From the IMG/VR virus record IMGVR_UViG_2671180727_000010: DNA of 38,652 nt. One strand, given 5' to 3'. The translations under genes were made by a program, and so were the position numbers. Below the pieces are notes generated by a model that saw only the letters and a list, made by a program, of their open reading frames with translations, did not search any database and was not told the DNA's origin. The stretch comes from a virus. Lineage: Duplodnaviria; Heunggongvirae; Uroviricota; Caudoviricetes. Below are positions 21,821-38,508 of this stretch, one piece after another. The number at the start of each line of letters is the position of its first letter. The stretch's first letter is position 1.

Positions 21821-22303
21821 TTACACGCCATCAAGGATGTGGATGCGGTTGCTTGCGTATACATTCAGCATAAAGTTAGCGCAAAACAGTTTCCATGTGT
21901 CAACGCCAGCGGTATACGTAATGTTTTTGCATTTAATCGCATTGTTGGCGATCCGCATCCCCTGCGATACTGCTTCATCGTCGGAAAATTTGAACGACGA
22001 TTGAGTTTTAATCCAGACAGAAATCTGCGTAGCGAACTCAATCAGCTTGGACTGGCAGAATCGCCCGGAGCGCACCGGAAAGACGAACGTTCCGAACCCA
22101 GAATTTACCACATACGCTTTCTCAAATACCCGCGAGTAACGACGATTGCCAATGATGTCGCGTGCAATAATGCATTTTTCTTGTGCTGACAGTTCTACCG
22201 TCTCATTGTCGCGCCATGCACCAAGTACTCGTTTTTCAATGTCAGAGAACGTTACAGCGATATTGCCATGTGCGGGTGCGTTTACAGTAGCGATAAAATT
22301 CAT
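21821..22303 (-). CDS. Hypothetical protein (160 aa)
   Basis: ATG at 22303 preceded by AAGGAA; own promoter with the operator motif upstream. Confidence 0.55.
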   Translation of the reverse strand: MNFIATVNAPAHGNIAVTFSDIEKRVLGAWRDNETVELSAQEKCIIARDIIGNRRYSRVFEKAYVVNSGFGTFVFPVRSGRFCQSKLIEFATQISVWIKTQSSFKFSDDEAVSQGMRIANNAIKCKNITYTAGVDTWKLFCANFMLNVYASNRIHILDGV

Positions 22304-22478
22304 GATTAATTCCTTATAGTAAATAACAAATTGTTTTCTTGTTGGTGTTAATTATCGTTGTACGAATAAGGCGTCAAAGTGGAAAGTTGCGGTAGCCGGA
22401 CGGGAACAGGTGGGTTTGTCGGTTGCCTGGAGGTAAGAGGTTGGTGTTTTTAGCCTGCGGGAAACAGGATGGTCATTT

Positions 22479-22502
22479 AAGGCCACCAGCATTGGTGGCC
22501 TT
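22479..22502. repeat. Perfect hairpin AAGGCCACCA-gcat-TGGTGGCCTT
   Basis: 10-bp arms; a second copy with inverted loop (atgc) at 22950-22973; no clear U-tract. Confidence 0.5.
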
Positions 22503-22507
22503 AATCT

Positions 22508-22789
22508 TTAGTGGAGCAGACCGATGTCGATGGTATCCCCTGAATCATCCACACGGATCATCAGCATGGCAAAGGCGTTTAGTGGATAACTGGCGTGCCA
22601 TTCAGGGAAGCGGTCATCTCGCATGAAGTCGGCAATGTCGTAAACGCAGCCCTCAAAGTGGAAGAATCGCGTGCTTACCTGCTCGTCATAATCCACATGA
22701 TCCATTTCTTGCTGTTCTGTTTCCGGCAAGTCCAGCCATGATTCAAGGAATACATTTTGTGCTTTAGGGGTAATGGTGAAATCAGTCAT
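22508..22789 (-). CDS. Small strongly acidic protein (93 aa)
   Basis: Likely start MTDFTITPK (ATG at 22789, GAGGA 8 nt upstream); ~20 Asp/Glu versus ~5 Lys/Arg; own promoter and operator. Confidence 0.5.
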   Translation of the reverse strand: MTDFTITPKAQNVFLESWLDLPETEQQEMDHVDYDEQVSTRFFHFEGCVYDIADFMRDDRFPEWHASYPLNAFAMLMIRVDDSGDTIDIGLLH

Positions 22790-22949
22790 GAGCATATCCT
22801 CACTGCGTAAACATGTTGTTTTCTTGTTGGTGTAATTATCGCAGTGTAGATAAGGCATAAAAGAAGTTAATACAGGCTGAATACACAAGAAAGGTTCTGG
22901 AAGTTGATAGCCAGGTTTCAAACTAACCTTCGGTTATTAAAAGTCATTT

Positions 22950-22973
22950 AAGGCCACCAATGCTGGTGGCCTT
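22950..22973. repeat. Second copy of the AAGGCCACCA...TGGTGGCCTT hairpin (loop inverted)
   Basis: Reverse complement of the 22479-22502 hairpin including the loop; flanks are not inverted. Confidence 0.5.
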
Positions 22974-35509: not shown

Positions 35510-36006
35510 TGGATGACTCCTTTACGAAGCTGTTCAGCAATACTTACGCATATCTCTGCGCCTCTAATCAGCCCCGGAACGTTCTTGTTTGGCCCAACTT
35601 CACCATCAACAAAATCAATCATCGCGTTACGAGCCATATCCACGCCCTGCGCACGTACTTCAGCCAGAAAAGCATCGGTGGCTGGAGTCTCCGTTAATTC
35701 GCTAACCCAATTATCTCCGTGTTCCTCGGCACACATCGCATCGAATGCTCGCTCAGATTCTTTCAGGGCTGCATTCTCCGCCGCTAATGCGTCTCTCTGC
35801 GCCCGCAACTTCTCAATTTCAGCAGCCATGTAGTAACCAACCATAGCGAAGACGGCAAAAGAGTTGTCTGCCTCATCAGGCGACACTGAGGCCATTAGCA
35901 GGCCATCGTAAAAATCGTGACTCCCATTGGTGATCGCCACCGCATAGGAGTCGTGGTTCTCGCGCTTGTGAATGAGAACTACGGGATTTTCGATTTTGTT
36001 ACTCAT
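35506..36006 (-). CDS. Hypothetical phage early protein (166 aa) with a central coiled-coil
   Basis: EIEKLRAQRDALAAENAALKESERAFDAM segment; own promoter region with operator-like motif at ~36075-36095. Confidence 0.45.
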   Translation of the reverse strand: MSNKIENPVVLIHKRENHDSYAVAITNGSHDFYDGLLMASVSPDEADNSFAVFAMVGYYMAAEIEKLRAQRDALAAENAALKESERAFDAMCAEEHGDNWVSELTETPATDAFLAEVRAQGVDMARNAMIDFVDGEVGPNKNVPGLIRGAEICVSIAEQLRKGVIQ

Positions 36007-36144
36007 GTGTTTTTCTCTTCTTTGCTGTTACATAAGCACTACCAAGTGCTGGTTTATTTTCACAAATAAGAAAATGTAGAAAACAATTTATTTAAGGCCA
36101 TAAGTTATGGCCTTTATTTATTCATGCAGAAGGATTTGTAGCGT

Positions 36145-36525
36145 CTAATTGCCGGATAAAATGGGGTGAGGTGCTTGCCAGTAGGCTCCACCGGTCCATG
36201 TGAACCCCATGCGAATAAGAGTGTTTATTGCGGCTTTGGTAGACTCCGATTCGACACTGGCTTTTCGAAACTCTTGAACCTCTTTCGCCAACTTGTATGT
36301 AATTGTGCAGGGGACGATTGCAGCCCAGCCTTTCTCATGACTGTTAATGACCATCTGGATGTGACCATCCAGAATAGGTTGATTAGGCATGTTATTGAAA
36401 ATGTCTGCCTGTTTTTGAATGTGAAGAAAAAGCCTTGCCAGCTCCATTTGCTCACTACGAGACAAGGGATTATCAAGAGGGCTTTTTGCAAAAGCGGCTA
36501 CACGCTGTGCGTCAATGCCAAACAT
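36145..36525 (-). CDS. Hypothetical protein (126 aa)
   Basis: Coupled to the upstream gene (shared stop/start at 36525). Confidence 0.45.
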   Translation of the reverse strand: MFGIDAQRVAAFAKSPLDNPLSRSEQMELARLFLHIQKQADIFNNMPNQPILDGHIQMVINSHEKGWAAIVPCTITYKLAKEVQEFRKASVESESTKAAINTLIRMGFTWTGGAYWQAPHPILSGN

Positions 36526-37229
36526 CAGCGCACCTCACCATCTTTATGGCTGGAGTTAACTTCCGTCATTAAATGTCTGACGTAATCGACAAGAGAGCCG
36601 CCTGGTGGAATCTGGCATTCCTCAACTAACTGGAAGTAGATATCCGCTGCATTACGTGTATTGCTACCCGCGCATATTCTTTCTTCCCGAAGTGCATGAA
36701 GCTCGTTGATCAAACGGTCACACTCTCCGTTACGCTGATCCACAACGGCCTCAAGCTCTGCGACGCGTTCACCTGGCGTCTTACCTTCTTTGCGTTGGAT
36801 GGTAACGACGAAATCGCCAATTGCAGGGACGTTGTAATCCAGCTCAAGGTAGTTTTTGGCACCGCTGCGGACGAACTCACCCGCGAACATGGTGGCGAAC
36901 ATCGCAGAGGCCACTTCGCCGTTGAAAAGTGACTCCAGATCTAACGGAGTCCCGGCAGCAAGAGCCTCTTTTGCTGTATCCATTGCATCCATGAACCGAT
37001 CAAACTCACTAGCGCGCTTTTCCAGGTCTTTCCATTGCTCGCTCCAACGTTTGGCAACGAAGTCTATGAATGTTTTCGCGGATTCATCAAAATCCCCCTC
37101 AAACTTAACGATGCCTTTATCAATAATGATCTGGCCTACCGCATCCTCTGCATAACCTTTCAATGTAAACTTGAAAGGAAAATCAGAATGGCCTGTGACG
37201 TTAAAATGCTCTAACTGGAGGTTGTTCAT
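36525..37229 (-). CDS. Hypothetical protein (234 aa)
   Basis: ORF with promoter region 37230-37290 containing a GTAAATACTTAC dyad. Confidence 0.5.
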   Translation of the reverse strand: MNNLQLEHFNVTGHSDFPFKFTLKGYAEDAVGQIIIDKGIVKFEGDFDESAKTFIDFVAKRWSEQWKDLEKRASEFDRFMDAMDTAKEALAAGTPLDLESLFNGEVASAMFATMFAGEFVRSGAKNYLELDYNVPAIGDFVVTIQRKEGKTPGERVAELEAVVDQRNGECDRLINELHALREERICAGSNTRNAADIYFQLVEECQIPPGGSLVDYVRHLMTEVNSSHKDGEVR

Positions 37230-37290
37230 GTGTTTTTCTCTTATCGTTTAGTTATTACATTCTTACACAAATTAAGTAAGTATTTACCTA

Positions 37291-38508
37291 TCATTTAACG
37301 CGTTTGAAAACGTATACGCTGACTGTGATCCCTGTGTCTTCAAACTCGTTGGTAAACGACTTCCCTCTGGCATAAACGTAATTATCCATCGTCATCCAGT
37401 CCAGTATTGGCGCAGTGCCCGGCAATACTGCTACAAGACGCCCGCCGACTTTCAGATGCCCCAGCGCAGCCAGCGTGTGCTCTCTATGACGACCAAGCGA
37501 GTACGGCGGGTTCATAACGATTTTGTCGAACTGATAACCTGCGTTGTCCTCAGACCACTTTATGAAGTCGCAGCAAATCGTGTTCGTATACCCTTTTCCA
37601 CGCAGGATATCAGCGAAGAGAGGTGCGATTTCTATGCAGGTAACATCTTCCAGATCGGCGTTAATATAGGCCAGAAGATCCCCACGTCCGGCTTGAGGCT
37701 CCAGCAGCTTCTCACCAGGCTTCAATTCAGTGGCTCTGGCAACGTACTCAGCAATCAAGCGTGGGGTAGGGTAGAACTGGTGTGATTTTGTATCCGGTAT
37801 TAAACCGGTAGCCACAATCGTATTTAGCGTATGGCCGATGTCATACGGGAACTGCCAGTGCTTTTTCTCCTGCACGCCGCCAATGAAGCTCAGTGTGCGC
37901 TCAAGCTCTTCCACCTGCGACTTCTGGAGAGCTGAATCAGAGAAGTACCATACGCCTTTGTCTTTGCTCAATCGCCCGTCACGAAGCGCAGTGCGAACCG
38001 GCACGGAGATCGTCTTCTGGATTAACCCGAACTGCTTTGGTGCCCGTGTTTTTGGCGCGGTGCGACATGGCGCGGGGATTGCAGCAGGCATACTGTAAGC
38101 CAGCACCTCATTCAACTTCCAGGCCACGTCAGGATGTATTTCAAAGTGAACGTTGCCGTTCTTGAACATCTTCACGCGCATCAGATTTCCATCGACGTTC
38201 ATCCAGTCACCGGTCTGGCAGTCGTTTGCTCGATACGCAGCTGATAGCACCTCAGCAGTGCGGTTGATGGTAATAAATTCTTTGTGCGCGAAGAAATGAA
38301 GCAAGACACGCAGATCGTCGATGTAGTCCTCTTTGCGATAGTTCACGCTAACGCTGTCCCGCCAGAAATCAGAAATGCAGTCAGCGATTATCAGACGCTC
38401 GCTGAAACCGTTTGTCTTATTTGTCTTGTGCGCAGGACTCAGCGCCTTAAACAAGCCATACACGCGCTCAGAGAGATATTTGTGCCTGTCATTCAGCAAA
38501 TTAAGCAT
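37291..38508 (-). CDS. N6-adenine DNA methyltransferase (orphan) with ~200-aa N-terminal extension
   Basis: AdoMet motif LLEPQAGRGDLL and catalytic MNPPYS (motif IV) in the C-terminal half; ATG at 38508 lies only 8 bp from the IS end. Confidence 0.7.
   Translation of the reverse strand: MLNLLNDRHKYLSERVYGLFKALSPAHKTNKTNGFSERLIIADCISDFWRDSVSVNYRKEDYIDDLRVLLHFFAHKEFITINRTAEVLSAAYRANDCQTGDWMNVDGNLMRVKMFKNGNVHFEIHPDVAWKLNEVLAYSMPAAIPAPCRTAPKTRAPKQFGLIQKTISVPVRTALRDGRLSKDKGVWYFSDSALQKSQVEELERTLSFIGGVQEKKHWQFPYDIGHTLNTIVATGLIPDTKSHQFYPTPRLIAEYVARATELKPGEKLLEPQAGRGDLLAYINADLEDVTCIEIAPLFADILRGKGYTNTICCDFIKWSEDNAGYQFDKIVMNPPYSLGRHREHTLAALGHLKVGGRLVAVLPGTAPILDWMTMDNYVYARGKSFTNEFEDTGITVSVYVFKRVK

Follow-up and report, generated by a model that had tools for sequence, protein, structure and literature searches.

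A diverged second metG-apbC pair in the cargo slot of a probable SSU5-family phage-plasmid

The presence of metG, which encodes methionyl-tRNA synthetase (MetRS), on SSU5-type phage-plasmids has already been published for pWPMR2 of Shigella sonnei in connection with antimicrobial survival. One report assigns pWPMR2 to the SSU5 supergroup and describes similar plasmids in a sizeable fraction of S. sonnei and in Escherichia coli clonal complexes CC131, CC23 and CC73 (bioRxiv 10.1101/2025.09.12.675607). According to another, which cites Tam, De Silva et al. 2024 (medRxiv 10.1101/2024.10.27.24316207), expression of phage-plasmid-encoded metG in S. sonnei is reported to have created a sub-population predisposed to acquire resistance to third-generation cephalosporins (PMC12452169). 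A further member of the family, Cyrano (pLF82), is a ciprofloxacin-inducible plasmid prophage that produces siphovirus particles and is kept at ~5.5 copies per cell (PMC9928086). Here, we analyzed the IMG/VR virus record IMGVR_UViG_2671180727_000010, a stretch of 38,652 nucleotides (the window), in which metG and the adjoining apbC lie between phage genes. The window's element resembles pWPMR2 as described there, an SSU5-supergroup element with an extra metG that occurs in S. sonnei and E. coli, and two insertions of the insertion sequence (IS) IS629 set it apart from the pWPMR2 type.

We conclude that window 99-38516 is very probably one unbroken segment of an SSU5-family phage-plasmid of ~108 kb that carries metG-apbC as an accessory second copy; the lineage of this element is that of pECOH89, Cyrano-pLF82 and pAVS0223-B. 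Window 21000-38523 aligned with the circular plasmid pAVS0223-B (NZ_CP124417, 108,564 bp) at 99% coverage and 98.7% identity. At least 80% of the same stretch was covered in one place in 83 closed E. coli plasmid records from complete genomes, and at least 80% of 14000-38523 was covered in one place in 82 PLSDB plasmids, including pECOH89 (NC_023916) and plasmids of Shigella sonnei and E. albertii. On these records, both flanks and metG-apbC occurred together in the same order. Window 98-22000 was 98.6% identical to Escherichia phage CMS-2020a, 98.9% identical to phage Cyrano and 81.6% identical to Salmonella phage SSU5. Overall, Cyrano (pLF82, OV696614), pECOH89 and pAVS0223-B shared 97.6-98.9% DNA identity and the same gene order with the window, including metG (annotated as MetRS), apbC (annotated as MinD-like) and humD. 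They differed from it in the small lambdoid genes to the right of humD, which are mosaic; members of the pECOH89 type carry an added ISEcp1-blaCTX-M-15, and the window's IS629 insertions were in none of the relatives inspected.

Of 5,426 complete E. coli genomes, 240 carried the portal-terminase backbone. All of its 248 places lay on plasmids and none on a chromosome, and 216 of the copies were at least 95% identical. The closed relative pAVS0223-B has repA at 1-1056 and also encodes a tyrosine recombinase, 4 tRNA genes, dnaE, a DnaB-like helicase, a ligase, nrdAB, thyA, dfrA51 and rnhA; since dnaE, nrdAB, thyA, dfrA51, rnhA and the tRNA genes all belong to its gene content, host-like paralogues are judged to be typical of the SSU5 family. 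In lysogeny, the element would be a temperate siphovirus kept as a circular, repA-based plasmid of ~108 kb without integration. An earlier note on this DNA had seen no integrase in view, and indeed none was found in the window; a tRNA scan of the window returned no tRNA gene, and a scan at gathering thresholds returned no Rfam family. The same note had read the gene order as an abnormal prophage topology. This puzzle dissolves because a plasmid-living phage has no integrase-bounded topology: the order is the one expected for a non-integrating phage-plasmid, and the absence of an integrase and of an att site is expected since the element would replicate as a repA-based plasmid instead of being integrated.

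The genes named in the earlier note, metG and apbC with phage genes on both sides, were all present in the order it gave, with Pfam and PHROG matches. The gene pair comprises the following features.

27903-29936, minus strand: metG, complete class I methionyl-tRNA synthetase of 677 aa (Pfam tRNA-synt_1g, E 6e-166; Anticodon_3; tRNA_bind)
29937-30093, no strand: control region between the divergent metG and apbC, with low conservation relative to E. coli
30094-31194, plus strand: apbC (mrp), complete iron-sulfur (Fe-S) cluster carrier ATPase (Pfam ParA/NUBPL PF10609, E 2e-102)
31200-31220, no strand: GC-rich terminator-like hairpin between the convergent apbC and humD

The same note had called this pair a core locus, a description that did not hold: metG-apbC (27903-31194) was only 88.4% identical overall at the DNA level to the E. 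coli chromosomal locus and lacked the chromosomal neighbors. The homology to the K-12 chromosome began at the metG stop codon and ended 4 nt short of the apbC stop (27902-31190); no chromosomal sequence was present beyond the two stop codons, where phage genes stood in place of yehE and the DUF4132 gene. Each of the 5,426 E. coli genomes also had a chromosomal metG-apbC, 80-90% identical to the window copy. The copies at least 95% identical to the window lay on plasmids; plasmid-borne metG-apbC occurred at 223 places, with 55 records at 99% or above and 161 at 95-99% (~216 at 95% or above). As the plasmid pairs at 95% or above (~216) equal the backbones at 95% or above (216), the numbers suggest that metG-apbC is fixed in the family's E. 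coli/Shigella lineage. In a phage collection searched with tblastn, MetRS was found only in the collection's four E. coli members of the family and not in SSU5 or the Klebsiella members.

Both genes are intact. The MetRS motifs HLGH22 and KMSKS333 and the zinc knuckles CPKC146 and CEVC159 were conserved, as were the deviant Walker A motif GKGGVGKS112 and the CxxC cluster motif CSNC280 of ApbC. Compared with K-12, metG was 94.05% identical in DNA and 98.7% in protein, and apbC was 82.4% identical in DNA. The ratio of nonsynonymous to synonymous divergence (dN/dS) against K-12 was 0.023 for metG and for apbC, which indicates strong purifying selection on both. The plasmid MetRS differed from that of K-12 by nine conservative changes (Q72K, S112T, S151A, S275T, V276T, S319T, V442I, R538K and A554T), and its protein identity and dN/dS suggest that it is capable of aminoacylation.

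With regard to function, the published reading, which we take from the literature and consider the most likely, is that extra MetRS at variable dosage alters lysogen survival. The plasmid copy would give the lysogen additional MetRS at a variable dosage, and an antimicrobial-surviving sub-population would arise. Previous work showed that lowered or perturbed MetRS activity raises persistence (PMC11004401), and in Cyrano lysogens CYRAN_99 (= apbC) was expressed 9-fold above the prophage background (PMC9928086). An unlikely explanation that nevertheless carries some weight is that metG-apbC is kept mainly for lytic growth of the phage, serving translation and the maturation of Fe-S enzymes (e.g. 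NrdB-type) together with tRNAs, dnaE, nrdAB and thyA. It agrees with the many host-like replication and nucleotide-metabolism paralogues and the four tRNA genes of the family, with the strong purifying selection, and with the occurrence of MetRS in other large phages, namely Pseudomonas phage Y5 (65% protein identity) and Acinetobacter phages (57%). However, apbC is expressed in the lysogen (CYRAN_99; PMC9928086), and the phenotype reported for S. sonnei belongs to the lysogen (PMC12452169). In addition, metG and apbC keep their own divergent control region rather than promoters under the dispersed operator described below; a sigma-70 scan of 27600-32500 gave 6 sites versus 6.4 in shuffles, which is uninformative on the metG/apbC promoters. 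The benefit to the phage and the benefit to the lysogen are not mutually exclusive.

A further component of drug tolerance may be encoded outside the window. At 32261-33059, pAVS0223-B carries a DUF1778 antitoxin and a GNAT toxin, and the toxin matched PDB entries 6GTS, 6AJM and 6GTP (E ~1e-79), which we take to be AtaT, and KacT 5ZGN (E 4e-75). AtaT acetylates Met-tRNAfMet, the product of MetRS. We speculate that the spare MetRS could be functionally coupled to this AtaT/KacT-type toxin in generating drug-tolerant cells.

Several points weigh against the account of a plasmid-borne second copy that alters lysogen survival. No replication or partition gene lies within the window, and we infer the plasmid status of its element from near-identical closed relatives. 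The agreement between 216 backbones and ~216 gene pairs is one of totals, not of individual records. None of the known persistence alleles delta-ETIT 569-572, G263S, S264F and frameshift 630 (PMC11004401) is present in this MetRS, and since its differences from K-12 are conservative, any phenotype would come from dosage or expression. Finally, among the matches listed in a search with one genome per species, to which the E. albertii and E. fergusonii representatives did not contribute, no donor chromosome was closer than 94% for metG or 83% for apbC.

To describe where the pair sits, we compared the window with SSU5 (JQ965645) and the Klebsiella phage-plasmid pJN2-26 (MZ779062). Both have the same backbone order (helicase, small-gene array, slot, DUF4942 methylase) and the same palindrome as the window, and both are without metG, apbC and humD. 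Window 17698-27823 corresponded to SSU5 locus 17-10351 and window 36054-38519 to locus 13024-15715, in order, and pJN2-26 showed the same collinearity pattern on both flanks. The slot between the collinear points is 8.2 kb in the window (27824-36053), 2.7 kb in SSU5 and 2.9 kb in pJN2-26. In the window it holds metG, apbC, humD and eight small lambdoid/P1-type genes; in SSU5 an HD-domain (ppGpp-hydrolase-like) gene accompanies a ydfZ-like gene and two unknowns, and pJN2-26 is similar. Apart from metG-apbC, the slot and its boundaries consist of the following features.

27754-27819, no strand: left boundary, double operator (27754-27768 and 27805-27819) around a GATAAT box, with repeats D1 and I13
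31232-31621, minus strand: humD-type S24 peptidase, UmuD'-like (Pfam Peptidase_S24 PF00717)
31640-31655, no strand: consensus LexA box, CTGTATATACATACAG, 19 bp upstream of humD
32423-36006, minus strand: block of lambdoid/P1-type small genes (Pfam and PHROGs)
32423-33049, 33046-33429, 34079-34264, 34261-34920 and 35506-36006, minus strand: small genes of this block
33426-34079, minus strand: DUF551 protein (Pfam)
34788-35111, minus strand: ClpX zinc finger protein (Pfam)
35108-35509, minus strand: Ead/Ea22 protein (Pfam)
36056-36103, no strand: right boundary, D1 repeat copy with operator 36080-36094, aligning with SSU5 13024-13093 and pJN2-26 11754-11814

The cargo slot filled by metG-apbC belongs to the early/accessory region, and a copy of a repeated promoter-operator cassette marks each of its ends. 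The 48-nt repeat D1, which contains the palindrome, is present at 27781-27828 and 36056-36103, exactly where the alignment with SSU5 and pJN2-26 loses collinearity and regains it. The boundary cassettes were 84-89% identical to SSU5 (88.6% at the left boundary, against SSU5 locus 10283-10351), whereas the adjoining coding DNA was only ~67-72% identical (~70% on the left). These promoter cassettes of ~50-70 bp may be recombination joints for cargo swapping. Window 31243-35698 contained patches of 85-90% DNA identity to the phage-plasmids P1, D6, RCS47 and SJ46, and the slot has therefore been filled from several sources; the small-gene block is mosaic between relatives and differed from Cyrano at 32758-33248 and 34461-35468. 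The humD region was itself 85-90% identical in DNA to the humD regions of P1, D6, RCS47 and SJ46. The product has the S24 domain (PF00717) and the upstream LexA box of a HumD/UmuD'-type peptidase, and on these two features humD is predicted to be under SOS control. In P1/D6-type phage-plasmids, humD with its LexA box and several Ea22/DUF551-type genes were 85-90% DNA-identical to the window, while the backbone was unrelated to the window's; that humD and the LexA box are common to P1-type phage-plasmids indicates gene flow between two phage-plasmid families.

The earlier note had also proposed a specialised-transducing-type structure. The resemblance holds in one respect: host-derived DNA does lie inside a phage genome, and as in lambda gal/bio transducing phages a piece of host chromosome is embedded in a temperate phage. 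The window does not otherwise have the features of a specialised transducing phage, as no att or int is nearby and the identity to the chromosome is only 88%. We consider it very unlikely that an integrated ancestor excised aberrantly beside metG. The embedded host DNA replaces ~2.7 kb of SSU5 accessory genes and a closed relative does encode a tyrosine recombinase elsewhere, both of which speak for such an event. However, there were 0 integrated copies in the 5,426 genomes, the captured DNA is trimmed to exactly two genes with no further chromosomal flank, and it has a central place in the accessory region, flanked by promoter cassettes, with the recombinase ~56 kb away on the relative's record. 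Synonymous divergence (dS) of 0.29 and 1.56 from K-12 for metG and apbC, respectively, also marks an old, diverged pair and no recent transducing particle. Unlike lambda gal/bio, then, the capture is ancient (88% DNA identity), apparently lineage-fixed and under selection, no integration site lies beside the captured genes, and the carrier is a non-integrating plasmid prophage.

The two halves of the captured pair have diverged to different extents. In addition to its 94.05% identity to E. coli, metG was 87.7% identical to Citrobacter, and apbC was 82.4-82.6% identical to both; in the intergenic region, 135 bp aligned with Citrobacter at 78% and only 47 bp aligned with K-12. Among the matches listed, the best chromosomal match to metG was Escherichia (94%), and for apbC Escherichia and Citrobacter were equal (82-83%). 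Between E. coli and Citrobacter werkmanii, dS was 0.74 for metG and 1.19 for apbC, only 1.6-fold apart. The GC content at third codon positions was 0.53 in apbC, down from ~0.62, and 0.61 in metG. We also noted that the metG-apbC coding sequences of CP170191.1 ('Enterobacter hormaechei strain B56') are identical to K-12, with dS = 0 in both genes; this record is probably a mislabelled E. coli genome.

A column-by-column comparison of five plasmid metG-apbC copies gave 200 differing sites, nearly all at third-codon positions. The split that groups PhiR41_1 with K-12 against the window and SCU-175 had 47 supporting sites, in clusters at 28068-28686, 29766-29898 and 30525-30696. An incompatible split, in which SCU-175 groups with K-12 against the window and PhiR41_1, had 19, all in a cluster at 29109-29604, and the third split had 4. 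Such incompatible and spatially clustered patterns (47 vs 19 vs 4) show that the plasmid metG copies are mosaics shaped by patchy recombination with alleles of the Escherichia chromosomal type. Per 150 nt, metG carried 0-8 differences from K-12 that are fixed in all five copies, as against 15-49 for the intergenic region and apbC. From these patterns we infer that the capture is old, that patchy recombination with chromosomal alleles of Escherichia or with other plasmid alleles has since partly homogenised metG, and that apbC is now too diverged for such homogenisation. The gene pair would have been taken long ago from an enterobacterial chromosome and trimmed down to both stop codons, and its metG half would still swap sequence patches with chromosomal metG alleles.

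Both ends of the window lie in IS629, as follows.

1-98, no strand: end of an IS629 copy (IS3 family; 98 bp, 99% identical to the IS629 of Shiga toxin (Stx) phages), with the contig break inside the IS
38517-38652, no strand: same end of a second IS629 copy (136 bp), in the opposite orientation to that at 1-98

Positions 38517-38614 are the exact reverse complement of 1-98. The left IS629 cuts the tape-measure gene after ~870 of 1,523 codons, the right one removes ~149 N-terminal residues of the methyltransferase, and these insertions explain where the contig ends. Portal, terminase, capsid and tail genes are present in the window, with the tape-measure gene cut at 98/99, and virions are documented only for Cyrano (PMC9928086); this copy is probably virion-defective (no tails) and plasmid-locked. 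The inverted termini at 1-98 and 38517-38652 invite the suggestion, made in the earlier note, that an IS-mediated rearrangement put metG-apbC between phage segments. We regard this as highly improbable, more so than aberrant excision. IS629 is found only at the window termini, the same interior order occurs in >80 closed plasmids without these insertions, the left IS629/tape-measure junction was in no PLSDB plasmid and is thus a private, later event, and no IS remnant lies beside metG or apbC, where gaps of 79 bp and 37 bp hold only hairpins. As the IS-free closed relatives keep the interior gene order and the left junction is absent from PLSDB, the insertions are private and later than the capture, and they did not create the metG arrangement.

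The remaining two proposals are negligible. A chromosomal metG-apbC core locus between two independent prophages or remnants, the first possibility named in the earlier note, would account for phage genes on both sides and for the lack of an integrase in the window, but the copy is 88%, not ~99%, identical to the locus in all 5,426 E. coli genomes, the chromosomal neighbors yehE and the DUF4132 gene are absent, the single phage SSU5 is collinear with both flanks, the backbone is never chromosomal, and the closed genomes carry one element, not two unrelated ones, with flanks and metG-apbC together on the 83 E. coli and 82 PLSDB plasmids. A misjoin of host and phage contigs might be suspected from the IS629 repeats at the window ends, which are typical of short-read contigs, but the same joins occur in dozens of independently closed plasmids and phage genomes.

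The suspicion that the flanks are related and share operator motifs was confirmed: they belong to the same element, both are collinear with SSU5, and a dispersed operator is present on both sides. The 15-bp palindrome AAAACAAnTTGTTTT, allowing at most 2 mismatches, occurred at 12 sites in the window versus 0.35 expected, and 0 of 100 shuffles reached 12. The sites are 13182, 13207, 19406, 22323, 22808, 23558, 24461, 24945, 26141, 27754, 27805 and 36080; nine lie within 21821-38508, eight to the left of metG and one (36080) to the right. Enrichment was also seen in SSU5 (14 vs 0.13 expected) and pJN2-26 (11 vs 0.19), and the rest of pAVS0223-B has 4 and 3 further sites, some of them past the right end of the window. 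Two placements recur when the minus strand is read: either the palindrome covers the -35 position, or it separates a GATAAT -10-like box from the Shine-Dalgarno sequence of the leftward gene that follows; at 27754-27819 both are occupied. The individual placements in the small-gene array are as follows.

22323-22337: operator palindrome preceded by a GATAAT -10-like box and followed by the ribosome-binding site of gene 21821-22303
22808-22822: operator palindrome upstream of gene 22508-22789
23558-23572: operator palindrome at the -35 position, upstream of gene 23125-23499
24461-24475: operator palindrome upstream of gene 24139-24450
24945-24959: operator palindrome upstream of gene 24604-24933

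Across Escherichia, Salmonella and Klebsiella, >30 promoters in phage-plasmids of the SSU5 family have the palindrome at a fixed position, and a single dispersed-operator regulon is therefore implied. The palindrome-bearing cassettes are putative repressor-controlled promoters of the accessory region. The P1 C1 repressor acts at many scattered operators, and the single palindrome dispersed among numerous SSU5-family promoters would be analogous. No description of an SSU5 operator or repressor was found in the searched literature, and the dispersed operator, the exchange of metG patches and the toxin-MetRS link are described in no paper found there. We hold the joint proposal, a dispersed-operator regulon with cargo-swap joints, mosaic exchange of metG and coupling of MetRS to the toxin, only tentatively, as possible and somewhat doubtful.

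The rest of the window consists of SSU5-type backbone and accessory genes.

99-2742, minus strand: N-terminal part (~870 codons) of the tape-measure gene, cut by IS629 (Cyrano/SSU5 annotation under the match)
3070-16529, minus strand: head/tail morphogenesis module of an SSU5-type siphovirus (capsid, portal, terminase and others; 98.6% CMS-2020a, 81.6% SSU5)
13182-13221, no strand: two operator palindromes (sites 13182 and 13207) upstream of the terminase operon
16594-18153, plus strand: DEAD/DEAH helicase of the SSU5 backbone (annotation in pAVS0223-B and SSU5)
21821-27750, minus strand: array of small accessory genes, collinear with SSU5 locus 3001-10351
21821-22303, 22508-22789, 23125-23499, 23617-24012 and 24139-24450, minus strand: array genes
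24604-24933, 26498-27067, 27220-27405 and 27442-27663, minus strand: further array genes
36145-37229, minus strand: two conserved SSU5-backbone genes, 36145-36525 and 36525-37229 (PHROGs; 81.8% identical to SSU5)
37291-38508, minus strand: DUF4942 DNA methyltransferase without ~149 N-terminal residues (phrog_6263 profile positions 150-548 of 548; Pfam DUF4942)

The tape-measure open frame on the minus strand runs from ~2713 into the IS, and the full gene in pAVS0223-B is 4,572 bp (1,523 codons); the full-length DUF4942 methyltransferase gene is 1,686 bp in pAVS0223-B and SSU5. Each of the nine leftward array genes matched one PHROG family of unknown function end to end, and most have a promoter-operator element upstream. 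Repeated GC-rich hairpins follow successive small genes, at 22477-22504 and 22948-22975 and at 20704-20734 and 21200-21230 (sequences TTAAGGCCACCA...TGGTGGCCTTAA and GAGCGCCCACTATGGGCGCTTT), and the accessory region resembles a series of promoter-gene-terminator cassettes. Within the array, ~1.4 kb at 25000-26480 is unannotated in the RefSeq relative, has a strong AT skew (-0.28), is ~67% conserved with SSU5, and contains repeats D5 and D9 and two open reading frames (ORFs) starting MPLP. The three longest ORFs in it begin with TTG or atypical codons, and the ORFs at 25128-26378 matched no PHROG family, unlike every neighboring gene, and contained no significant tandem repeats. This stretch may be non-coding (RNA or origin).

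Host-like housekeeping paralogues that change the drug response of a lysogen have a precedent in dfrA50/dfrA51 of phage-plasmids (PMC12217456), and dfrA51 is annotated on pAVS0223-B. The mechanism differs, as dfrA50/dfrA51 give resistance by target replacement (PMC12217456), whereas metG is associated with altered survival. The remaining leads from the window are modest and incremental: a family-wide operator that bounds the slot, exchange between plasmid and chromosomal metG, tail-gene inactivation by IS629 and a possible toxin link. For genome surveys, a diverged second metG on a multicopy mobile replicon could be mistaken in read mapping for single-nucleotide polymorphisms in the core gene. 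For the organisms themselves, published reports link the second metG to antimicrobial survival in epidemic Shigella and E. coli.

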